This document shows positions 5,129 through 61,968 of a stretch of DNA of 64,000 nucleotides, piece by piece (the stretch's first letter is position 1; each line of letters begins with the position of its first letter). The stretch lies in NCBI RefSeq assembly GCF_050320075.1, contig NZ_CP190018.1; one strand, given 5' to 3'. A program made the position numbers and the translations under genes. A model generated the notes under the pieces. It had not been told where the DNA came from. It did not search any database and saw nothing but the letters and a program-made list of their open reading frames with translations. Source of the DNA: Escherichia coli (lineage in GTDB: Bacteria > Pseudomonadota > Gammaproteobacteria > Enterobacterales > Enterobacteriaceae).

Positions 5129-5875
5129 ATGTTAAGTATTAAAGATTTACACGTCAGCGTGGAAGATAAAGCTATCCTGCGTGGATTAAGCCTCGACGTT
5201 CGTCCCGGCGAAGTTCACGCCATTATGGGGCCAAACGGTTCTGGCAAAAGTACCTTATCGGCAACGCTTGCCGGGCGAGAAGATTATGAGGTGACGGGCG
5301 GCACGGTTGAGTTCAAAGGCAAAGATTTGCTTGCGCTGTCGCCGGAAGATCGTGCAGGTGAAGGCATCTTTATGGCCTTCCAGTATCCGGTGGAAATTCC
5401 CGGCGTCAGTAACCAGTTTTTCCTGCAAACGGCACTTAATGCGGTGCGCAGCTATCGCGGCCAGGAAACGCTCGACCGCTTTGATTTTCAGGATTTGATG
5501 GAAGAGAAAATCGCTCTCCTGAAGATGCCGGAAGATTTATTAACCCGTTCGGTAAACGTTGGTTTTTCCGGCGGCGAGAAAAAGCGCAACGATATTTTTC
5601 AAATGGCGGTGCTGGAACCGGAGTTATGCATTCTTGATGAGTCGGACTCCGGGCTGGATATTGACGCATTAAAAGTGGTTGCCGATGGCGTGAACTCGCT
5701 GCGTGACGGCAAGCGCTCATTCATCATTGTTACGCACTACCAACGCATTCTCGACTACATCAAGCCTGATTACGTCCATGTGCTGTATCAGGGACGAATT
5801 GTGAAATCCGGAGATTTCACGTTGGTCAAACAACTGGAGGAGCAGGGTTATGGCTGGCTTACCGAACAGCAGTAA
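5129..5875 (+). CDS. sufC: Fe-S cluster assembly ATPase SufC, 248 aa
   Basis: Walker A GPNGSGKST; ABC signature FSGGEKKR. Confidence 0.95.
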   Translation: MLSIKDLHVSVEDKAILRGLSLDVRPGEVHAIMGPNGSGKSTLSATLAGREDYEVTGGTVEFKGKDLLALSPEDRAGEGIFMAFQYPVEIPGVSNQFFLQTALNAVRSYRGQETLDRFDFQDLMEEKIALLKMPEDLLTRSVNVGFSGGEKKRNDIFQMAVLEPELCILDESDSGLDIDALKVVADGVNSLRDGKRSFIIVTHYQRILDYIKPDYVHVLYQGRIVKSGDFTLVKQLEEQGYGWLTEQQ

Positions 5876-7121
5876 CGCGCTGCAACAGTGGCATCACTTG
5901 TTTGAAGCTGAAGGGACAAAACGCTCACCGCAAGCACAGCAGCATTTACAACAATTGCTGCGTACCGGACTGCCGACACGGAAACATGAAAACTGGAAAT
6001 ATACGCCGCTGGAAGGGCTGACCAATAGCCAGTTTGTCAGCATTGCGGGAGAGATATCCCCACAGCAGCGTGATGCCTTAGCGTTAACGTTAGACGCCGT
6101 GCGGCTGGTGTTTGTTGATGGACGTTACGTGCCCGCGCTGAGCGATGCAACTGAAGGCAGCGGATATGAAGTGAGCATTAACGACGACCGTCAGGGGTTA
6201 CCCGACGCTATTCAGGCGGAAGTGTTTCTGCATTTGACGGAAAGCCTGGCACAAAGCGTGACGCATATCGCCGTGAAGCGCGGTCAACGACCGGCAAAGC
6301 CATTGCTGTTAATGCATATAACCCAGGGCGTGGCAGGTGAAGAGGTGAACACTGCCCATTACCGACATCATCTGGATCTGGCGGAAGGTGCCGAAGCAAC
6401 GGTGATCGAACATTTTGTCAGCCTTAATGATGCTCGTCATTTTACTGGGGCACGGTTCACTATCAATGTCGCAGCGAACGCCCACTTGCAGCATATCAAG
6501 CTGGCGTTTGAAAACCCGCTCAGTCACCACTTTGCCCATAACGATTTGTTGCTGGCAGACGATGCCACCGCATTTAGCCACAGTTACCTGCTGGGTGGCG
6601 CAGTGTTACGACACAACACCAGTTCGCAACTCAATGGCGAAAACAGCACGCTGCGGATCAATAGCCTGGCGATGCCGGTGAAAAACGAGGTGTGTGATAC
6701 CCGTACCTGGCTGGAACACAATAAAGGTTTTTGTAACAGCCGACAGTTGCACAAAACTATCGTCAGCGACAAAGGCCGCGCGGTATTTAACGGTTTGATC
6801 AACGTCGCGCAGCACGCCATCAAAACGGATGGTCAGATGACCAACAATAATCTGCTGATGGGCAAACTGGCGGAAGTGGATACGAAACCACAGCTGGAAA
6901 TCTATGCAGATGATGTGAAATGCAGCCACGGCGCGACGGTGGGGCGTATTGATGACGAACAGATGTTTTATCTGCGCTCGCGCGGGATCAATCAGCAAGA
7001 TGCCCAGCAGATGATCATCTACGCCTTTGCTGCTGAACTGACGGAAGCACTGCGTGATGAGGGGCTTAAACAGCAGGTGCTGGCCCGAATCGGTCAACGA
7101 CTGCCAGGAGGTGCAAGATGA
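5850..7121 (+). CDS. sufD: Fe-S cluster assembly protein SufD, 423 aa
   Basis: 423-aa ORF overlapping sufC 3' end by 26 nt; suf operon context. Confidence 0.93.
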
Positions 7122-9934: not shown

Positions 9935-9966
9935 CAAAAAAATGGCGCACAATGTGCGCCATTTTT
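9935..9966. terminator. bidirectional intrinsic terminator shared by ldtE (+) and lpp (-)
   Basis: AAAAAAATGGCGCACAATGTGCGCCATTTTT: palindromic stem flanked by A-tract and T-tract. Confidence 0.8.
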
Positions 9967-30130: not shown

Positions 30131-30406
30131 GTGGCTTCTGTTTCTATCAGCTGTCCCTCCTGTTCAGCTACTGACGGGGTGGTGCGTAACGGCAAAAGCA
30201 CCGCCGGACATCAGCGCTATCTCTGCTCTCACTGCCGTAAAACATGGCAACTGCAGTTCACTTACACCGCTTCTCAACCCGGTACGCACCAGAAAATCAT
30301 TGATATGGCCATGAATGGCGTTGGATGCCGGGCAACTGCCCGCATTATGGGCGTTGGCCTCAACACGATTTTCCGCCATTTAAAAAACTCAGGCCGCAGT
30401 CGGTAA
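30131..30406 (+). CDS. insA: IS1 InsA (DNA-binding inhibitor; N-terminal part of InsAB' transposase), 91 aa
   Basis: [43 protein letters not shown]... zinc-finger and HTH. Confidence 0.97.
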
Positions 30407-30828
30407 CCTCGCGCATACAGCCGGGCAGTGACGTCATCGTCTGCGCGGAAATGGACGAACAGTGGGGATACGTCGGGGCTAAATCGCGCCAGCGCTGGCT
30501 GTTTTACGCGTATGACAGGCTCCGGAAGACGGTTGTTGCGCACGTATTCGGTGAACGCACTATGGCGACGCTGGGGCGTCTTATGAGCCTGCTGTCACCC
30601 TTTGACGTGGTGATATGGATGACGGATGGCTGGCCGCTGTATGAATCCCGCCTGAAGGGAAAGCTGCACGTAATCAGCAAGCGATATACGCAGCGAATTG
30701 AGCGGCATAACCTGAATCTGAGGCAGCACCTGGCACGGCTGGGACGGAAGTCGCTGTCGTTCTCAAAATCGGTGGAGCTGCATGACAAAGTCATCGGGCA
30801 TTATCTGAACATAAAACACTATCAATAA
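30325..30828 (+). CDS. insB: IS1 InsB reading frame, 167 aa; expressed as InsAB' by -1 frameshift
   Basis: [16 protein letters not shown]...; overlaps insA in the -1 frame. Confidence 0.95.
30382..30388 (+). other. IS1 programmed -1 ribosomal frameshift slippery site AAAAAAC
   Basis: A6C heptamer in the insA/insB overlap, read directly. Confidence 0.85.
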
Positions 30829-33151: not shown

Positions 33152-33979
33152 TTAGCGAAGTGTTTTTGGAGTCATTACCCGGCGAGCGCCAACATAGTGG
33201 CGCTGCCAGTAGTCTTCACTGAGAGAAGTGATTTGAATTTCCTGACCCGTACGCGGTGACTGAATAAATTTGCCGTTGCCGACATACACGCCGACATGAT
33301 CGGCTGTACCGCGTCCCTGAGTACGGAAGAAGACCAGGTCGCCGTTTTTCAGCTCACTACGTTCGATAGGTGCTGCATCACGCAGGTGATACATTTCATT
33401 CGCCGTACGCGGAATACGAATTTTCACCAAATCTTTATAAGCGTAATAAACCAGGCCGCTGCAATCAAAACCGGTACGCGGTGAGCTGCCACCCCAACGA
33501 TATGGCTTACCAATTTGCTGCATCAGTTTATTCATTGCCACTTTTGTGGCTTTTTGCACCTTCGCTTTGTGTGCGTCGGCAAGGGTTCCTGACGCGGCAT
33601 TTTTGACTTTCACACAATGCGATTTATAGCCCTTACGTTTGGTACACTTTTCGGTAAAGCTGGCTGAGGCCGTTTTATTGACGGCGTGTTTGCTGCGAGT
33701 TTTGGCGTTTTTAGAAGCGGTAATGGAAGATTTTTTAACGGAAGAAGCGGTTTTGCTTTTGGTCGTACTTTTACTGGCGGCTTTTTTCGCTGTTTTCTGG
33801 CTGGCTTTCTGGGTCTTTTTGGTGGTTGCCGTGCTTTTCTTTTTATCTGCTTTTTTGGTGATATGAGTGGTAGCAGAACTCTCCCTGGCTTGCTTTGAAG
33901 CATGGGCCATAGGTGTTAAAGGCAGGGTGGTAAAAAGTAAAGCACAGAGCGTGATCGAAATACGGTTTATCCGCACCAC
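33152..33979 (-). CDS. mepH: NlpC/P60 peptidoglycan endopeptidase MepH (YdhO); start codon uncertain
   Basis: Signal peptide, Lys/Thr/Ser-rich linker, C-terminal NlpC/P60 domain (FDCSGLVYYAY, H near C-terminus). Confidence 0.85.
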   Translation of the reverse strand: MVRINRISITLCALLFTTLPLTPMAHASKQARESSATTHITKKADKKKSTATTKKTQKASQKTAKKAASKSTTKSKTASSVKKSSITASKNAKTRSKHAVNKTASASFTEKCTKRKGYKSHCVKVKNAASGTLADAHKAKVQKATKVAMNKLMQQIGKPYRWGGSSPRTGFDCSGLVYYAYKDLVKIRIPRTANEMYHLRDAAPIERSELKNGDLVFFRTQGRGTADHVGVYVGNGKFIQSPRTGQEIQITSLSEDYWQRHYVGARRVMTPKTLR

Positions 33980-34711: not shown

Positions 34712-37700
34712 CTATCCCCAATCCAGCCCTTGTGGCGAACTTGAAAATCCCGCCTCACGCAGCAGCGTAAACATCGGCGTTTGCCGGACCGGTAGATCAT
34801 TCACTTCTGTTAGCGTAAAGCGCAGCCGTGGTTCGCGACGCAGTGCGGTGGTCAGCGCCTGGAAAATCTCTGGGGCGAGTAATTCATCTTTTTCCTGCCA
34901 GACCAGCATTTTTTTGCCGCCTTGCGCCAGATAGAGTAACAATTTGCCGCCAGAAACGACCACCAGCGCACCCGCCCGACGCGTTGGAACCAGCGTTGCC
35001 GGATGTGCAGGCCAGGGCAGAAGATTTCCCCACACATTAGCCGGATCGTTGGCGGAGAGCGCCACTGGTGTATAGTGGCGCGTTTGCGTGGCTTGTGTCG
35101 CCAGATCGCGCAATCGGTCAATAGTCAGACGTTCAGCGAATTGCGCACCCCCCAGACCTTCTACAAAACGACCTCGCATAATTCGCCCGGAGTCTTCCAT
35201 ACTTCGACAAAGCGTTTGCATCGATGGAAACCCGCCAGGGATATTTTCGGCTATCACCGCCTGACGACTGATGATGCCGTAGCGGTCGAGCATATTTTCC
35301 GCCAGCGCCAGCATCCTTTCGGTATCGTTTAGTGGCTCCACCTGCAATAACGACCAGCGTCCAGCAAGATTTGGTGTGTTGTAAGATACCCGTGGCGAGA
35401 CGGGTTGTGCATAGACAGGACGCCCACGACGAGCCCGGTGACTGCGGCGAGTCGAGGTGCGTGCGTTGGAACTGCTGCGGGTGAGGGCGCGTAACGGTGC
35501 CCAAATGTCGCTGGTGATGACGCCTTGCCAGACCAGCGCCCATAACGCCTCTTGCATGGCTGAGGGATCAACCGATTCGCCGATTTTATCGCGTATCCGT
35601 TGGCTGATTTGTTGTGCAAACCAGGCTCCTCCGTCAGCCAGAACAGCGATTATCGCTTGCTGCAGCGCCGAACGATTCGCCTGATCTGCTTCGGCGGGAG
35701 TGAACGATTCTGCGGCATATTCCTGTAGATGCAGTGCCACCAGACCGTCATCTTCACCCAGCTTTTTTTGCCCCGACCAGATAACCGCACCGGTTGCCAG
35801 TAATTCATCGAGCATTTCTGGCGAATAGTCGCGTACGCGGGCAGGCAGGATCTGGCTTTCCCAGAGTGAGGCGGGTAAACCAACGCCAGCAAGCTGTTCG
35901 ATCACCCGCATCACGCCATCCACGCCCTCATAAACGCCTGGCGATGTTGAGGCAAAGAGTGCCGGGCTACCATCGGTGGCGGGTAATACGCCCTGACGTT
36001 CCAGCAGCAATCGCGCATAGGTCGTGGCCGCAACGGGACGTGTCGCTTCTCTGGCGGCTTGCAGCGAGCGCAAACGCAGACGACGAAATACTTCATCGCT
36101 CACCCAGATGTCTTGTTGCAGATTCATCACCAGCCCCTGTTCGCGCAGTTGCTGAAGTTGCTCTTCGACAATGGCAATACCGAGACTAAACTCATGAGCC
36201 AGTTGTTCAGACGTGACCAGAGCATGAGCCCGGAGATAGCGCAGAAAGAGGTCGCGAAGCGGGTAACTGACTCGGTGCAAATAAATCTCTGGCAGTGACT
36301 CTGGTAGTCGTACGCCGAGAGCATCGCGCAGCCTGGCGGCATCATCCATACAGGCAAGACGCTCCTGCCCGCTAATCATGGTCGGGAAGATTCGTTTTAC
36401 TGCAAGAAGATTTTCCAGATACGACGCAATCTCTTCACTGCTGCCTGTATGTCGTTGCGCCAGGTCTTCAACGGTCATTGGCCCCAGTTCGCGCAGCAGG
36501 TCGAACAATCCTTCTTCACCTTTCGCTCTTCTGCCAGGAGCCAGTCGTTGCAACTCTTCTTCCACCTGGCGAATGACCTGCGGGTCGAGTAATTCCCCCG
36601 GATCGACCTGTCCGAGTAGATTGCGCAGTAACTCGCTGTCCAGCGACAGTACGGATGCCCGGCGCTCTGCCAGCGGGGCGTCGCTCTGGTACATAAATTC
36701 CGCGACATAGCCGAACAATAAACTGGCGGCGAAAGGCGAAGGCGTAGTGGTCGTTACATCGGATATTTGAATTTCGCCACCGTTCAGGCGACGCATCAAA
36801 CGTTCCAGCGCGGGAAGATCATAAACATCTTGCAGACATTCGCGTAGTGTTTCGAGAATGACCGGAAAATCCGGATATCCCTGAGCGATTTCCAGCAACT
36901 GACTGGCGCGCAGCCGTTGTTGCCAGAGCGGGGTGCGATGGCCCGGCGTGCGGCCCGGCATTAATAATGCCCGCGCGGAGCATTCGCGAAAACGGGCGGC
37001 GAAAAGTGCCGAGCTGCCTACCGCCTCGCGGACAATTTGCAGCAACTTTTCTGGTTCAAACAAAAAAATCGCGGCATCAGGCAATTTACCATCGGTGTCA
37101 GGAATGCGCGCAACAATGCCGTCATCACTGGCAACCACAGACGCGTCAGCGCCCCATAGTGCATGTATTCGCCCGGCAATCGCCAGCGCCCAGGGTTCAT
37201 GCACCCGTCTTCCATAGGGAGAGTGCAAAATAATACGCCAGTCACCAATTTCATCACGGCACCGTTCGAGGACCAGATGACGACTACCTGGAACGATGCC
37301 CGTCGCGTTGCGCTGCTCGTCAATCAACCCCTGAATATTGGCGATCGTATTTTCTTCTGCCAACCACGGGGGAATAGTCCCGGAAAAGAACGCGCCATCC
37401 GCCAGTAAATGGAGAAAATCGCCGATCATCTCGCCTAATTCTGCCGGACGTCCGTTACCTTCACCACGCCAGAAGGGAAGGCGGGCAGAACGACCTGGAG
37501 CAGGAGTCACAATCACCTGATCGCGGGTGATTTGCTGGATCCGCCATGAGGTAGCGCCGAGAGTGATAATGTCGTTCACCCGCGACTCATATACCATCTC
37601 CTCATCCAGTTCACCCACCCGCCGCGAACCGGCCTGTTCTTCACCTTCGGGTAATAACACGCTATACATGCCACGATCCGGAATGGTGCCGCCGCTGGTA

Positions 37701-39326
37701 ACCGCCAACAATTGAGCGCCAGGTCGGGCGGTCAATATCCCGGTCTCCCGGTTCCAGACCAGTTTGGGGCGAAAAGCAGAAAAATCGCCAGAGGGATAGC
37801 GCCCGGAAAGCATATCCAGCGTGGCGTCAAAAACACGTCTTGGCAGATCTTTCCACGGTGCGGCACGGCGTACGCGGGAGTACCATTCGTCTACCTGTAA
37901 TGCATCCATCGCCGCGGCGGCAACGGTTTGCTGCGCAAGGACGTCGAGTGGATTATGCGGCGGTGTCAGGTTTTCCAGCCTGCCTGCGAACATACACTCT
38001 ACAATGACTGCGGAATCGACTAAGTCACGCCTGGTTCGGGGGAAAAAAAGCCCTTTGGAGATACCACCTACCTGGTGTCCGGCACGTCCAATGCGTTGTA
38101 ACCCACTGGCAACAGAAAGCGGCGTTGCCACCTGAATCACCAGATCCACCGCGCCCATATCAATCCCCAGTTCGAGACTGGAGGTTGCGACCACGCAGCG
38201 TAATTCACCCGATTTCAGCGCCTGTTCGGTGATTGCTCGTTGTTCTTTAGAGACGGAGCCGTGGTGTGAGCGGGCAATAAAAATGTCGCTATTTTGTACA
38301 CGGTTAGAGGTTGCGCCGGAGGTCGACTCGAAATGGACCGCATCAACGGCGATAGACGGGGAACGCTGTAAGCGTGCGGCGTAAAGCTCATTCAATCGTG
38401 CCGTCAGTTTTTCCGCCAGCCCGCGTGAATTAGTAAAGACAATGGTCGAGCGATGGCGCAAAACTTCATCAAGGATACCCGTTTCAATATATGGCCAGAT
38501 GGAGCCTTCCCGGCCGGCATGGCTGTCTTCGCCGGTGCCGCTGGCGACCGATGAGACATCATCCATATTGGCGACCGGTACGACAATCCGTATCTGCGGA
38601 TGGCGCATTGCGGGCGGGTTGACTACCGTAACCGGGCGATCGCCGCCAAGAAATGCTGCCACATCGCTGGCTGAACGCACAGTGGCAGAAAGGCCAATTC
38701 GCTGTGCTGAGGTGTGGAGCTGCGCATCGAGCCGCTCCAGACTTAACGCCAGATGCGCACCACGTTTACTGCCTGCTACCGCGTGGACTTCATCAATAAT
38801 TACCGTTTCGACGCCGCGTAGCGTTTCGCGCGCGGGAGGTCAGCATCAGATAGAGTGATTCGGGTGTGGTGATCAGAATATCCGGCGGATTACGGGTGAG
38901 TTTGCTGCGTTCCTGTGCAGGCGTATCGCCAGTACGGATCCCCACGCGAAGATTGACTTCCGTTTCGCCGCGCCGCCGCCGTTCATCGGCAATACCCTGT
39001 AACGGGATCTGCAAGTTGCGCTGAACGTCGGTGCCCAGAGCTTTGATCGGTGAAATATAGAGGATGCGTGAGGTTTTACGCTTATGCGCCTCGCGGGTAT
39101 CTTCGCCGCCTTCGCGGAAGAGCTGATCGAGGGCGTAGAGAAATGCTGCCAGCGTTTTCCCGGAGCCAGTCGGTGCAATCACCAGCGCATGTTCGCCTCG
39201 CGCCGCCACATGCCAGGTTTGCGACTGGACAGCGGTCGGCTGTTTAAAGGCGCGAAGAAACCAGTCGCGGGTCGCCGGTGAAAACACGTCCGGCAGGGGC
39301 GATGAAGGGTTTAGATTATCTGCCAT
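34712..39326 (-). pseudogene. lhr: lhr (large ATP-dependent helicase) interrupted by a frameshift: N-terminal 177-codon ORF 38793..39326, remainder open in another frame from about 38839 to 34712
   Basis: Walker A APTGSGKT in the upstream ORF; DEVH motif II and the rest of the helicase in a different frame; junction in CGCGCGCG at 38827-38834. Confidence 0.75.
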
Positions 39327-39418: not shown

Positions 39419-40066
39419 TTACACCTCTTCGGCGGCAGGTAGCGGCCAGCCTCCCAGACGTTTCCAGCGGTTGACGATTTCACAAAACAGCACAGCAGTG
39501 CGTTCGGTGTCGTACAGCGCGGAGTGCGCCTGGGTGCTGTCGAAGTCCATGCCAGCGGTCTGGCAAGCCTTTGACAATACGGTTTGTCCGAGTGCCAGCC
39601 CGGCAAGTGCAGCAGTGTCAAAAGTGGCGAAAGGGTGGAACGGGTTACGTTTCAGTGAGGCGCGTTCTGCGGCGGCCATCATAAAGCTGTGATCGAAATT
39701 GGCGTTGTGCGCCACCATAATGGCGCGGTTACAGCCGCTCGCTTTAATGCCTTTACGTACAACTTTAAAAATTTCGTGCAGCGCCTCGTATTCGCTGACC
39801 GCGCCGCGATCGGGATCGTTCGGGTCAATGCCGTTGAAGGCGAGGGCCTCTGGCTGCAAATTTGCGCCGACAAATGGTTCGACGTGGAAATGTAATGTGG
39901 TGTCCGGCATCAGCCAGCCTTGTTCATCCATTTTCAGGGTGATGGCGGCAATCTCAAGCAGCGCATCGGTTTTGGCGTTAAATCCGGCTGTTTCAACATC
40001 GATCACAACAGGATAAAAACCACGAAAACGGTCGCACAGACCGGTAAGTTGAGCGTTATCGGACAT
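39419..40066 (-). CDS. rnt: ribonuclease T, 215 aa
   Basis: DEDDh exonuclease motifs (VIDVETAGF...). Confidence 0.95.
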
Positions 40067-40656: not shown

Positions 40657-41754
40657 TTACAGCGTCGGGTAATCCGTGTAGCCTTCCGCACCGCCGCCAT
40701 AGAAACTTTCAGCACGCTGTGGATTAAGCTCAGCTTTGCGCTGCAAGCGGGCGACCAGATCCGGGTTCGCAATCCAGTCACGACCAAATGCCACCGCATC
40801 AATTAACCCTTTGCCAATCAGCGTTTCGGCTTTTTCTACCGTGTATGCACCTGCGCCGATAATCGGACCGTGGAAACGGGCGCGTACTTTTTCGCGGAAC
40901 GCATCAGTATACGGTTCACCTCCCGCCCAATCTGGTTCTGACATATGCAGATAAGCAATGCCGCGTTTACCCAGTTGTTCAATCAGATACAGTGCATCGG
41001 CTTCTTCATTCGGGCCGTTATCCGTGTTCTGGAAAGTACCGATTGGCGAAACGCGAATGCCAATGCGATCGGCCCCCCATTCTTCAATCCCTGCATCGAC
41101 CACTTCCAGCACCAGACGTGCGCGATTTTCCACGCTGCCGCCGTACTGATCGGTACGATGGTTTGAAGAAGGAGAAAGGAACTGATGCAGCAAATAACCA
41201 TGAGCAGAGTGGAGCTCTACCAGATCAAAACCGGCTTCACGCGCGTTAGCAATGGCCTGACGGAAATCATTGACGATACCCGGAATCTCTTCCAGTTCAA
41301 GCGCACGCGGCATGGATGTTTCAACACGGATCGCCTGACCATTTTCATCGCGCAGAGAAGTACGTGTTCCCGCGCTAAGTGCGGAAGGCGCTACCGGTGC
41401 CTGACCGCCAGGTTGCAGGCTGGCGTGAGAAATGCGTCCGGTGTGCCACAGCTGTACGGCCATATGACCATTTTCAGCATGAACGCCAGCGGTAATTTTT
41501 TTCCATGCGGCAATTTGTTCCGGACTATGGATGCCAGGTGCACCAGCATACCCTTTTGCCTGGGCAGAAATTTGCGTGGCTTCGCTAATAATCAAACCGG
41601 CACTGGCACGTTGGCGATAGTATTCCGCCATCAACGGGGTAGGGATGTCACCCGGTTCAATACTGCGCAGACGCGTCAGCGGTGCCATAAAAATACGGTT
41701 TGCCGCCGTGATCGCGCCCACTTTCAGTGGGGAATACAGTTTTTCAGATGACAT
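40657..41754 (-). CDS. nemA: N-ethylmaleimide reductase (Old Yellow Enzyme family, FMN), 365 aa
   Basis: 365-aa OYE-family protein immediately downstream of nemR. Confidence 0.95.
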
Positions 41755-41790
41755 AAAGGCTCCCGGTCGTCTGGTGATAAAAAATGCCTG

Positions 41791-42390
41791 CTAAACGGCA
41801 GGCGTCGCAATAATGGTTTTTACATGTGCCAGCGCGTTTTCCAGTGGCTCGGAATTGCGCGAAATTTTGGCCTGCAGATTCGCACCCAGCCATAGTGCGT
41901 AAAGCACTTGTGCCTGTTGCAGCGGTTCGCCACAAAAGGTTAAACAATGGCTATCACGGCCATTTTCCAGCGCCTGCGAGAGCAGAACGATCACGCCGCG
42001 AGCGCCTTTATCCATCGCGCTACGCATATCTTCTGACAGATCGCACACTTCGGCAGAGAGTTTTACTGTCAGGCAACCACTGATGGTTCCATGTTGGCAA
42101 AACTGGTTCAGTGTTTGCTGGTAATAAGCCAGTATGCGGTCGCGGTAGTTACCTTCGCCGGATTGCAGCAACTCAGTCAGTCGCTGGTGATATGCGGCGT
42201 AATGGCGCTCAAGCATGGCAACGCCAAACGCTTCTTTAGAGCGAAAGTAGTGATAGAAGGACCCTTTCGGCACTTCAGCAGTTTTTAGTAATTCGCTTAG
42301 CCCCATCCCGGTGAATCCACGTTGCAGGCAAAGTTGCTCGCCCGTCGCCAGGAGATGTTCGCGAGTATCATGTTCGGTGTGTTTGTTCAT
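41791..42390 (-). CDS. nemR: TetR-family electrophile-sensing repressor NemR, 199 aa
   Basis: N-terminal TetR HTH; operator palindrome directly upstream. Confidence 0.93.
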   Translation of the reverse strand: MNKHTEHDTREHLLATGEQLCLQRGFTGMGLSELLKTAEVPKGSFYHYFRSKEAFGVAMLERHYAAYHQRLTELLQSGEGNYRDRILAYYQQTLNQFCQHGTISGCLTVKLSAEVCDLSEDMRSAMDKGARGVIVLLSQALENGRDSHCLTFCGEPLQQAQVLYALWLGANLQAKISRNSEPLENALAHVKTIIATPAV

Positions 42391-42404
42391 GCGTTGGAGT
42401 GTAG

Positions 42405-42420
42405 TAGACCAGTCGGTCTA
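42405..42420. promoter_or_regulatory. NemR operator palindrome TAGACC-N4-GGTCTA
   Basis: TAGACCAGTCGGTCTA, perfect 6-bp inverted arms, 15-30 bp upstream of nemR ATG. Confidence 0.8.
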
Positions 42421-42492
42421 GTGCAAGCAAAGTTGCTACTTTGGGCATTAACAGCTTCAATAATGGTAATAATCTTATTTGAGGAGGGCGAA

Positions 42493-42732
42493 GTGGCGGA
42501 GCAATTAGAGTTTTTTCCCGTCCAGAGCCCGTGCCGGGGAATTTGCCAGTCTGACGAACGCGGGTTTTGTCGCGGCTGTTTTCGTAGTCGGGATGAGCGT
42601 TTTAACTGGAATAAAATGAGCGATGGCGAAAAACAAGAGGTGCTGCGCCTTTGTCGGCAGCGATTAATGCGCAAATTACGCGCAAATAAGCCAGCGTCAT
42701 CAGACGAACCGGAGCAACCATCACTCTTTTGA
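42493..42732 (+). CDS. ydhL: DUF1289 Cys-rich small protein YdhL, 79 aa, probable GTG start
   Basis: GTG at 42493 gives MAEQLEFFPVQSPCRGICQSDERGFCRGCFRS...; track ORF is extended upstream. Confidence 0.7.
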   Translation: MAEQLEFFPVQSPCRGICQSDERGFCRGCFRSRDERFNWNKMSDGEKQEVLRLCRQRLMRKLRANKPASSDEPEQPSLF

Positions 42733-42780
42733 GCCTAATCTTGCGTATACTCCTCTCATATCTGATAAGAGGAAGCGATT

Positions 42781-43677
42781 ATGGTTCAGCGTATTACTAT
42801 TGCGCCGCAAGGCCCGGAGTTTTCCCGTTTTGTGATGGGCTACTGGCGATTGATGGACTGGAATATGTCCGCCCGCCAGCTGGTCAGTTTTATTGAAGAG
42901 CATCTGGATCTCGGCGTGACCACCGTGGACCATGCTGATATTTATGGTGGCTATCAGTGCGAAGCGGCGTTTGGCGAGGCACTGAAACTGGCACCTCACC
43001 TGCGTGAACGGATGGAAATCGTCAGTAAATGCGGTATCGCGACGACCGCGCGTGAAGAAAACGTCATTGGTCATTACATCACTGACCGCGATCACATCAT
43101 TAAGAGCGCCGAACAGTCGCTAATTAATCTCGCGACCGATCATCTGGATCTGCTGTTAATCCACCGACCAGACCCGTTAATGGATGCCGATGAAGTGGCG
43201 GACGCGTTTAAACATCTGCATCAGAGCGGCAAAGTGCGTCATTTTGGCGTATCGAACTTTACGCCTGCGCAATTTGCGCTTTTGCAATCACGCCTGCCGT
43301 TTACCCTTGCCACTAATCAGGTGGAAATATCCCCGGTACATCAGCCGTTACTGTTGGATGGCACGCTCGACCAACTGCAACAACTGCGTGTTCGTCCGAT
43401 GGCGTGGTCCTGCCTTGGTGGTGGTCGTCTGTTTAATGATGATTATTTCCAGCCGCTGCGTGATGAACTGGCTGTGGTGGCGGAGGAGTTAAACGCGGGC
43501 TCGATTGAACAGGTGGTTTACGCCTGGGTATTACGTTTACCGTCGCAGCCGCTGCCAATTATCGGCTCAGGTAAAATTGAGCGCGTACGGGCAGCTGTCG
43601 AAGCTGAAACACTGAAAATGACCCGTCAACAATGGTTCCGTATCCGTAAAGCGGCATTGGGTTACGACGTACCGTAA
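42781..43677 (+). CDS. ydhF: aldo-keto reductase-family oxidoreductase YdhF, 298 aa
   Basis: 298-aa ORF with AKR-type fold. Confidence 0.9.
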   Translation: MVQRITIAPQGPEFSRFVMGYWRLMDWNMSARQLVSFIEEHLDLGVTTVDHADIYGGYQCEAAFGEALKLAPHLRERMEIVSKCGIATTAREENVIGHYITDRDHIIKSAEQSLINLATDHLDLLLIHRPDPLMDADEVADAFKHLHQSGKVRHFGVSNFTPAQFALLQSRLPFTLATNQVEISPVHQPLLLDGTLDQLQQLRVRPMAWSCLGGGRLFNDDYFQPLRDELAVVAEELNAGSIEQVVYAWVLRLPSQPLPIIGSGKIERVRAAVEAETLKMTRQQWFRIRKAALGYDVP

Positions 43678-43757
43678 GCACTTTTAGGAATAGCCGCCGT
43701 TCAAAAATGTGTCACTGGTTTACACTTATTCAGGAATGCACAATGAACGGAGGTCCT

Positions 43758-44279
43758 ATGAAACGTTTTAGTCTGGCCATTCTGGCGCTGGTTGTTGCGA
43801 CCGGCGCACAAGCTGCCAGTGAAAAAGTCGAGATGAACCTCGTCACGTCGCAAGGGGTTGGGCAGTCAATTGGTAGCGTCACCATTACTGAAACCGATAA
43901 AGGTCTGGAGTTTTCGCCCGATCTGAAAGCATTACCCCCCGGTGAACATGGCTTCCATATTCATGCCAAAGGAAGCTGCCAGCCAGCCACCAAAGATGGC
44001 AAAGCCAGCGCCGCGGAATCCGCAGGCGGGCATCTTGATCCACAAAATACCGGTAAACATGAAGGGCCAGAAGGTGCCGGGCATTTAGGCGATCTGCCTG
44101 CACTGGTCGTCAATAATGACGGCAAAGCTACCGATGCCGTCATCGCACCTCGTCTGAAATCACTGGATGAAGTCAAAGACAAAGCACTGATGGTCCATGT
44201 TGGCGGCGATAATATGTCCGATCAACCTAAACCGCTGGGCGGTGGCGGTGAACGCTATGCCTGTGGTGTAATTAAGTAA
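43758..44279 (+). CDS. sodC: periplasmic Cu,Zn superoxide dismutase SodC, 173 aa
   Basis: Internal ATG at 43758 (MKRFSLAILALVVATGAQA signal peptide); His-rich metal ligands. Confidence 0.93.
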   Translation: MKRFSLAILALVVATGAQAASEKVEMNLVTSQGVGQSIGSVTITETDKGLEFSPDLKALPPGEHGFHIHAKGSCQPATKDGKASAAESAGGHLDPQNTGKHEGPEGAGHLGDLPALVVNNDGKATDAVIAPRLKSLDEVKDKALMVHVGGDNMSDQPKPLGGGGERYACGVIK

Positions 44280-46292
44280 TTAAGAGGCCAGCGTACCTTG
44301 CGGTGGTGCTTGCTCAAGTTGCGAAAGCGAGCAGTACAGCCGCCAGACAATTGCCGCCAGCTCACGGGCGGCAGGTTGATGATGGCGGGCAAGGCTGTCG
44401 CAAATCCGCTGTAATTCTTCAAGTGTGGCCGCCAGTGATTTTTGCTGAACGCCACGCTCACTCATCACTCCGCGCAACAGTGAAATACAGTTATCCCGTA
44501 CTCGTGATAACGGATCGGAACGCGATTCCCAGTCGCGTAATTGCCAGACAACATGAGAACAGTTCAGCAGCACTACACCCCAGCGTAATAACCAACGGCG
44601 AGCCAGCGCATCCTGGCTGTTACTCAACTGACTGACGTGATGATAAGTGAGCGATTCAAATTCGCTTTCACTCAGTGTTGGATGGCGGCTTAGCTGATCG
44701 ACAAAATCCCGGCGCAGCGCGCGAATATGACGACGGCTTTTACGAGCACCCGACCCTGGACGCAAAATGGCGAACGCTAACCACGCCAGCGCAACGCCAA
44801 CGATTTTTGCCAGATTATCGTTAAGAAAATCAGCAAAATCATACACCGGGGGATTAGTGACAGCGATAAACGAACCCATAAAAACAATCAGTTGCCCCCA
44901 CAGTGCGGCAAATTTGGGCATCTGCAATTTAAGAAGCTGCATTGTCGCCAGCAGTGGAAAGAGAAACAGTAAAAATTGCCACAGATCGCTAATCTGGACC
45001 ATCAGGCCAAATTTGACCACAAAGCTGAATAGCGAAAGTAACACCAGAGTGCGCATCAGTAGTGACAACGACTTAAACGGTGCTGCGACGGCGGAGTAGA
45101 GTACGCAGCTAATTGCTGCCAGCGTTAATGCATTGGCACCGGCATCCCATTGCGAAGCAATACTCCATGCGCCAATCATCATCAACGTACAAAATGTACG
45201 CAGTCCGCTCCACATAGCTTCGGCGTTATCGGTATGACGAGCCAGGCCGGATGTCCGTGGGAGTCTGGTATGATCATCCACACCGCTTTGCAGACGATGT
45301 AATTCCTGACTACTTTGCAGATAAAGGCGGCAAAAATAACGTAGTCGCTGCCAGAAGGCGACGTGCCGGTAGTCGGCGACGTTGGTCGGGCGTAGCGGGG
45401 CGATAATACGTGCGACGGTGTAAACATCTGTTTGCGAACTGGCGAGCGCCGTCAGCAGCTGTTCGAGAATTTCTCGTGTGGCACATGGCGGTGAGGGCCA
45501 GTTGAGCAACATACGTCGCAGGCTGGAGATGACACTGGTCATACGTAATTGCTGGTGGAGCAGCGCATTAAGGCGTGCGTTTTGCTGGCGAAAACGATAG
45601 TGGCTCCAGAAAGCCTGGATACGGAGCAAATTCATGGTCAGTATCTGTCCAATCACCCCCTCATGTGCTGCACGAATGGCATCGGTTGTTTCAGGCTGCC
45701 AGAGTAAACTGGCATGTTCCAGTAATCGGGCGTGCATGTTTTTCAATGCGGTTAAAAGGGCAGTAGCATCGGAACTGCTCGGCAGGATCATCATCATCAT
45801 GCCGCCGCACAAAATACCGACAATCACCTCGCAAACGCGCGCCTGAGCGATATCCCACAGCTGGCTGGCCTCAGTAATATTAACCATCGGAAAGGCGATG
45901 ATGGCAGCCGTGTAGCCCGCCAGTTGAAATGCATACGCGACATTATTCGTGAAGTGCGCACAGGCCCAGGTACAAAAGCCAAGCCACGCCGCCATGCTCA
46001 AAAGAAAAAACCACGGCTCATTGAGCGTATGTCCGGCAAGAAGCAGTGCCGCAATGGCTCCGAGCAAACTGCCAGCGATGCGTCCGAGGCTTTTGCTGAT
46101 GACACCGCCAACGGTGGGAAAGCTAACCACGGCAGCCGAGGTCATCGCCCAATAGGGTTCATCCAGATTTAAATAATAGGCAACCGTCAGCGCCAGACAC
46201 ATGGCAATGGTATTGCGTAACGCATAACGCCATTGCGCCAGCGTGGCCCTGAACCAGGGCAAATTGCGCAAGGACCATGACGATGCGTTCAT
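44280..46292 (-). CDS. ydhK: FUSC-family inner membrane protein YdhK, 670 aa
   Basis: 670-aa polytopic membrane protein; 1-nt overlap with ydhJ. Confidence 0.9.

Positions 46293-59271: not shown

Positions 59272-61968
<2,697 letters not shown>

Follow-up and report, generated by a model that had tools for sequence, protein, structure and literature searches.

The lhr gene in the 64,000-nucleotide stretch of Escherichia coli DNA analyzed here (hereafter the window) is broken as written: one CG unit is missing from a run that reads (CG)5 in intact lhr. Because the reading frame is restored only by an added CG, lhr as written is a pseudogene of the Lhr family and not a functional member of it. 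The same 2-bp loss is found in other E. coli lineages, and the run is a recurrent natural −2 slippage hot spot. In the window itself, we lean, with limited confidence, toward a consensus error, left uncorrected in a long-read assembly, as the source of the missing CG, in which case the chromosome would carry (CG)5 and an intact lhr encoding 1538 amino acids.

Structure of the lhr locus and position of the break

The lhr gene lies directly downstream of rnt on the same strand and is convergent with grxD (Table 1). Its N-terminal open reading frame (ORF) begins with the ATG at 39326 and reads MADNLNPSS...VIAPTGSGKT...LYLMLTSRAR, followed by the out-of-frame residues NATRRRNGNY. The +1 frame opens ...PPARETLRGVETVIIDEVH, and in it the remainder of the helicase reads ...ARETLRGVETVIIDEVHAVAG... 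up to the native C-terminus. The two frames overlap over 44 nt that include CGCGCGCG at 38827-38834. A single continuous frame of about 1538 codons is not present in the window, as the frame breaks after codon 167 and reaches a stop at codon 178. The (CG)5 tract, which is the species state, encodes Ser-Arg-Ala-Arg-Glu.

Table 1. Features of the lhr region, given as positions in the window
Feature	Position	Strand	Remarks
lhr locus, frameshifted as written	34712..39326	-	4615 nt vs 4617 if intact; one 2-nt gap vs NZ_CP123240.1
N-terminal ORF: 167 native Lhr codons + 10 out-of-frame codons (NATRRRNGNY) + TGA	38793..39326	-	Pfam DEAD (PF00270) recorded for the identical product
Helicase motif I / Walker A, APTGSGKT, residues 51-58	39153..39176	-	Read directly from the sequence
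(CG)4 run, (CG)5 in intact lhr	38827..38834		Site of the 2-bp loss; codons S-R-A-R(-E)
Premature TGA in the shifted frame	38793..38795	-	Second TGA at 38790-38792
Motif II DEVH codons	38783..38794	-	Readable solely in the downstream (+1) frame
Rest of lhr, +1 frame	34712..38839	-	Runs to the native stop at 34712-34714
+1-frame domains: motif II, Helicase_C, winged-helix, DEAD_assoc, C-terminal domain	34712..38839		Pfam recorded for the identical product
rnt (RNase T)	39419..40066	-	Directly upstream of lhr; 92-nt spacer

An initial annotation of this DNA had described a 177-codon ORF carrying APTGSGKT, an apparent 2-bp loss in the CG run that separates motif I and motif II into different frames, and a continuous reading upon insertion of one CG. 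All of its coordinates (the ORF, the TGA at 38793-38795, the second frame and the overlap) are correct. The ORF can be refined into 167 native codons plus 10 out of frame, and the two motifs do lie in different frames, with VIAPTGSGKT upstream and DEVH (38783-38794) downstream. The 2-bp loss holds against every comparator that we used, since (CG)5 is the state in 4,378 of the 4,382 complete E. coli genomes that carry lhr. Putting back one CG yields a 1538-aa ORF with no amino acid differences from Lhr of E. coli YZLc1-3, the nearest complete genome. The sole lesion relative to both YZLc1-3 and strain 746 is the 2-nt gap, and the repaired ORF has no substitutions, as is characteristic of a single-lesion frameshifted pseudogene.

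By its sequence, the repaired protein is a bona fide long-form Lhr. The repaired or intact protein matches the mycobacterial Lhr structures 7LHL (E = 0, residues 8-1478) and 5V9X (E = 2.9e-293). The elements of a superfamily 2 (SF2) helicase core are all there: GSGKT, DEVH, Helicase_C, the Lhr winged-helix domain and DEAD_assoc (PF00270, PF00271, PF19306, PF08494). The downstream product also carries the C-terminal domain, which spans about 650 aa and contains winged-helix modules in tandem (PF23236, PF23235, PF23234). Of these families, PF00271, PF19306, PF08494, PF23236, PF23235 and PF23234 are Pfam records for the identical downstream product, and the records for intact Lhr comprise DEAD, Helicase_C, WHD_Lhr, DEAD_assoc and the second to fourth Lhr winged-helix domains.

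With one CG unit missing between motifs I and II, translation would end after 177 codons. The remaining 1,371 codons would be stranded in the +1 frame without a usable start, and no functional Lhr would be made if the sequence is true. The first in-frame start in the +1 frame is the GTG at 38680 (1322 aa), and no Shine-Dalgarno-like motif precedes it or any other in-frame ATG, GTG or TTG in the first 640 nt of the downstream frame. A protein made by re-initiation would be without motifs I to II. A polar effect on another gene is not expected, because nothing follows lhr on its strand.

Tract length across complete E. coli genomes

Among the 4,382 complete E. coli genomes with lhr, only four deviate from (CG)5, all of them having (CG)4, and no (CG)3 or (CG)6 alleles were found at ≥99% identity. 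The (CG)4 alleles were counted using a 44-nt junction query that seeds only on the (CG)4 allele, and 4 of 5,426 complete genomes were matched. The (CG)6 and (CG)3 alleles were searched for with queries of 77 to 83 nt that have long flanks, and the identity bands were read, because a short (CG)6 junction query is prone to low-complexity masking. The best matches of the (CG)3 query were the same four (CG)4 genomes. Because the frequency of (CG)4 stays low (~0.1% of complete genomes), there is no sign of a sweep of this allele.

These counts bear on whether the break is bypassed or put to use, be it by a programmed +1/−2 frameshift, by re-initiation that gives a functional C-terminal protein, or by (CG)n phase variation. 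The lesion lies in a simple repeat, is the sole lesion in every (CG)4 allele, recurs on several backgrounds and could in principle revert, but we consider a bypass or a switch highly improbable. With 4,378 of the 4,382 orthologues in frame, there is no conserved recoding. The 44-nt overlap holds no slippery site, and UAU-UGA at the stop cannot re-pair in the +1 frame. We rejected a programmed ribosomal frameshift on the basis of the single-frame orthologues and the lack of a slippery motif in the overlap, and re-initiation on the basis of the scan for starts in the +1 frame, in which the in-frame starts of the first 640 nt are not preceded by a Shine-Dalgarno-like motif and the product would be devoid of motifs I to II. 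Phase variation is countered by the existence of one alternative length only, at ~0.1%; neither (CG)3 nor (CG)6 was seen. For a contingency repeat, five units are also few, and with 4,378 (CG)5 genomes against four (CG)4 genomes, and all sisters of the window at (CG)5, lhr does not behave as a phase-variable contingency gene. It is likewise unlikely that the loss from (CG)5 reflects selection for switching Lhr off, which would make the tract a low-frequency, contingency-like switch in a DNA-repair gene. Such selection would act, for example, where the helicase-glycosylase is costly; the recurrence is observed, whereas selection and reversibility would be hypothetical.

Recurrence of the (CG)4 allele on other backgrounds

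The four complete genomes with (CG)4 are EcPF16 (USA, urine), KFu022 (Japan, river), PSS-12 (Ecuador, faeces) and MB06233 (Galapagos, seawater). The four cluster tightly in a single clade, with 0 to 13 SNPs per 12 kb, and PGAP (RefSeq) labels lhr as "frameshifted" in all four. Because the (CG)4 allele is inherited in this clade, in four genomes from three continents, it is real there. The frameshift allele is thus of an already known kind: an ordinary single-lesion pseudogene that RefSeq annotates in other genomes.

Beyond the complete genomes, the exact 177-aa product is found on at least 10 contigs, which come from Logan run assemblies (presumed short-read) and, in one case, from an ENA metagenome scaffold. 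The Logan carriers are SRR3987667, ERR15395451 (and four similar places), SRR31121722 and SRR30093162. All of these contigs have (CG)4, and they differ by 46 to 189 SNPs per 12.5 kb from the window and from each other, except for contigs L005 and L006, which represent one lineage. One (CG)4 lineage is found in at least six samples. Besides the EcPF16 clade, the Logan runs and the metagenome scaffold place (CG)4 on at least four haplotypes. Overall, the haplotypes with (CG)4 number at least six and are separated by 46 to 241 SNPs over 12 kb, and three different N-terminal protein haplotypes share the out-of-frame tail. The 2-bp loss is the sole lesion in all ten (CG)4 alleles.

Three of the contigs, L005, L007 and L008, have (CG)5 twins among the complete genomes, from which, over 3 kb, they differ only by the 2-nt gap (3001 vs 3003 bases, equal bit score). 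Contig L007 shares the lhr haplotype of the window yet lies outside its subclade, as it has the ancestral C at 33975, no IS1 and a block of 45 SNPs relative to the window at 40816-44813. For contig L004, no exact twin was found among the complete genomes, and its independence is judged from haplotype distance only.

Because (CG)4 is present on several haplotypes, three of them with (CG)5 twins, we conclude that the CG run of lhr is a recurrent natural −2 slippage hot spot. A single origin spread by recombination was rejected for L005, L007 and L008, each of which has its (CG)5 twin, and also for the window, as YZLc1-3 is 0 SNPs away and has (CG)5. Moreover, the other carriers differ from the window within 53 bp, at 38774, which argues against recombinational spread to the window. 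Recurrence at one site fits what is established for alternating GC runs in E. coli, where −2 frameshifts arise at hot spots via slipped intermediates (PMC3338768). The independent recurrence of the exact 2-bp loss in wild E. coli is a minor new point and makes the (CG)5 tract of lhr a natural example of a −2 hot spot in an alternating GC run.

Two other variants at this locus were observed. At position 6587 of the L005/L006 locus, which corresponds to position 38740 of the window, the downstream fragment is called 20 codons earlier (1342 vs 1322 aa); a SNP at this position, where the window reads CTG, probably makes a start codon. Additionally, a 167-aa protein (P0013) on five Logan contigs is a truncated Lhr that ends ...TSRAR and then a stop, at about position 38826 of the window. 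It carries a different lesion, and a GAA-to-TAA change at the codon after the CG run would explain the stop.

Comparison of the window with its nearest relatives

All 64,000 bases of the window align to YZLc1-3 (NZ_CP123240.1; chicken, China) with one mismatch and two gaps. The lhr gene of that genome (record 2481760-2486376; WP_001595820.1, 1538 aa) reads CGCGCGCGCG where the window reads CGCGCGCG. In the comparison of lhr with closely related strains that the initial annotation had proposed as a check, YZLc1-3 shows this difference only.

Relative to YZLc1-3, the window has (CG)4 in place of (CG)5 in lhr, A7 in place of A8 at 9936-9942, and TTTTT where YZLc1-3 has TTTTG at 5599; these are the only three differences. 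At all three sites the window has the rare state: (CG)4 in 4 of 4,382 complete genomes, A7 in 3 of 5,425 (on the same 200-bp haplotype) and T in sufC in 0 of 5,416. The A run lies in the spacer between ldtE and lpp and adjoins the hairpin GGCGCACAATGTGCGCC; it is A8 in YZLc1-3 and in nearly all genomes and, on the lpp strand, looks like the U-tract of an apparent lpp terminator. The substitution at 5599 (plus strand, codon 157 of sufC) is a private G-to-T change (TTG to TTT) that replaces leucine with phenylalanine (SufC L157F); the residue lies after the ABC signature FSGGEKKR and before the Walker B sequence ILDE. Among the 5,416 complete E. coli genomes with a match to the segment, none carries the T allele, and the L157F protein was found once elsewhere, in the Logan run ERR5976865, which belongs to an unrelated lineage (98.2% identity). 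This change in SufC may be either a genuine missense mutation or an error in the consensus.

An IS1 element at about 30131-30828, between purR and cydH/ynhF, marks a narrow subclade. The element, whose transposase coding sequence has a programmed frameshift, is common to the window, YZLc1-3 and GCA_054461465.1 (L017), and it is absent in strain 746, L015, L016 and SRR31121722. Because the window runs through this IS1, of which the genome has many copies, the source assembly must be long-read or hybrid. Elsewhere in the window, at 59319-59743 in rsxC, we observed self-matches of ~92% and ~88% identity at offsets of ~96 and ~192 nt, which indicate an imperfect tandem repeat array.

Consensus error or real mutation

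We lean toward a consensus error because, within its subclade, (CG)4 is known from the window alone and is accompanied by a second repeat-shortening difference. The homologous 64 kb of YZLc1-3 contains just one 5-unit dinucleotide repeat and just one 8-base homopolymer, and both are shorter in the window. Hence, two of the three differences shorten the sole (CG)5 and the sole A8. The subclade members L015 to L017, in turn, differ from the window by 1 to 2 SNPs per 14.8 kb and by no indels, and all have (CG)5 and intact Lhr. We also counted in favor of a consensus error that the YZLc1-3 assembly is a version 2, so that a superseded earlier version exists. Speculatively, the window may be that earlier version or may come from a sister isolate. 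As a general point, frameshifts seen in a single genome are often sequencing errors (Touchon et al. 2009, PMC2617782). The case is circumstantial and draws on three differences. The lesion itself, its restriction to the window within the subclade and the way in which the window departs from the nearest genome are all observed, and from them we infer that a consensus error, and not a mutation, lies behind the pattern.

Several observations run counter to a consensus error. An identical allele is real elsewhere, so the site does mutate in this way. None of the 4,382 complete genomes has a singleton (CG)4, (CG)3 or (CG)6, and because of this lack of singleton length variants, consensus errors at the tract are not common. 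At the third site the window differs by a substitution, a kind of change less expected from consensus errors in repeat length. Additionally, YZLc1-3, if it was polished against related genomes, could itself have been "corrected" toward the species consensus.

A real private mutation, in which slippage or slipped translesion synthesis within (CG)5 dropped one unit and gave rise to a young lhr null, is in our estimate somewhat less probable than a consensus error. The same −2 event has repeated in nature: (CG)4 is carried by at least six haplotypes, the (CG)5 twins of L005, L007 and L008 include one on the window's own lhr haplotype (that of L007), and none of the ten (CG)4 alleles has a second lesion. 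The run is also of the alternating GC kind known for −2 events in E. coli (PMC3338768), and loss of lhr is tolerated, as Δlhr is viable (PMC10953399) and ~19% of genomes have lost nearly the whole gene. Set against this, the allele of the window is a singleton that has no support from independent data. In look-ups of four exact proteins (the 177-aa product, SufC L157F, the lineage-specific MepH and the 1322-aa downstream product), no independent data set combined (CG)4 with the markers of the window's subclade. Moreover, a second repeat-shortening indel falls within the same 64 kb of near-zero divergence, in a clone that otherwise diverges by SNPs. A mismatch-repair mutator background is disfavored as the source of both indels, as the sole substitution is a G-to-T transversion. 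From the known spectra of mismatch-repair mutators, we estimate that two indels in specific repeats should be accompanied by a large number of transitions, far more than the single G-to-T change seen.

The initial annotation had offered two readings, a slippage mutation or a sequencing or assembly indel; the evidence supports this division, with no other live options, and the consensus error is the one toward which we lean. For annotation, a (CG)4 call in lhr marks a position to be verified against reads before a pseudogene is declared.

Dispensability of lhr and consequences of its loss

The proposal that lhr is non-essential is supported both by laboratory deletion and by natural loss. In E. 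coli K-12, a Δlhr strain is viable, with mild sensitivity to AZT and 10- to 100-fold sensitivity to hydrogen peroxide (PMC10953399). In ~1,044 of 5,425 complete genomes (19%), the interval between rnt and grxD is 1,465 bp, vs 5,853 bp elsewhere. The lhr remnant in those genomes is ~230 bp (e.g., NZ_CP063515.1, positions 511916-512144), and PGAP calls partial genes there, one as an "endonuclease" and one as an "ATP-dependent helicase." Because ~19% of complete genomes lack it, lhr is dispensable. This fraction fits the report by Touchon et al. 2009 (PMC2617782) that lhr is one of the genes specifically missing from phylogroup B2.

If the mutation in the window is real, the strain would be without the Lhr helicase and its uracil-DNA glycosylase activity. 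Such a natural lhr null is expected, by analogy with K-12, to be viable and more sensitive to AZT and peroxide. The finding matters little for biology, as a whole phylogroup is already without lhr.

Comparison with known systems

E. coli Lhr (large helicase-related) combines a helicase with a uracil-DNA glycosylase at its C-terminus (PMC10953399). The intact E. coli protein WP_001595820.1, an SF2 3′-5′ DNA translocase/helicase plus glycosylase, is encoded at the same locus and in the same synteny (rnt-lhr, with grxD convergent). Relative to this allele, lhr of the window is 100% identical apart from the 2-nt gap, and its repaired translation is identical over 1538 aa. Unlike intact Lhr, the gene in the window keeps only residues 1-167 in frame, which include motif I and nothing from motif II onward.

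The lhr genes of EcPF16, KFu022, PSS-12 and MB06233 have the same (CG)5-to-(CG)4 lesion as the window, in the same codons, with the same truncation at 177 codons and the same out-of-frame tail. Their lhr haplotype, however, differs from that of the window by ~240 SNPs per 12 kb. Furthermore, the allele is common to the four genomes of that clade, whereas in the window it is a singleton among intact sister genomes.

The near-complete deletion of lhr is, like the allele of the window, a natural loss of Lhr function. In that deletion ~4.4 kb are gone and the loss is fixed in a major clade, while in the window 2 bp are lost and the rest of the gene is intact.

The closest mutational parallel is the NarI-type hot spot, in which GGCGCC becomes GGCC. 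As there, lhr loses exactly one GC/CG unit from an alternating run, and the event recurs at one site on independent backgrounds with −2 products only. At the classical NarI hot spot, guanine-C8 adducts trigger the event and Pol II is required, whereas the lhr event is known from its sequence outcome alone.
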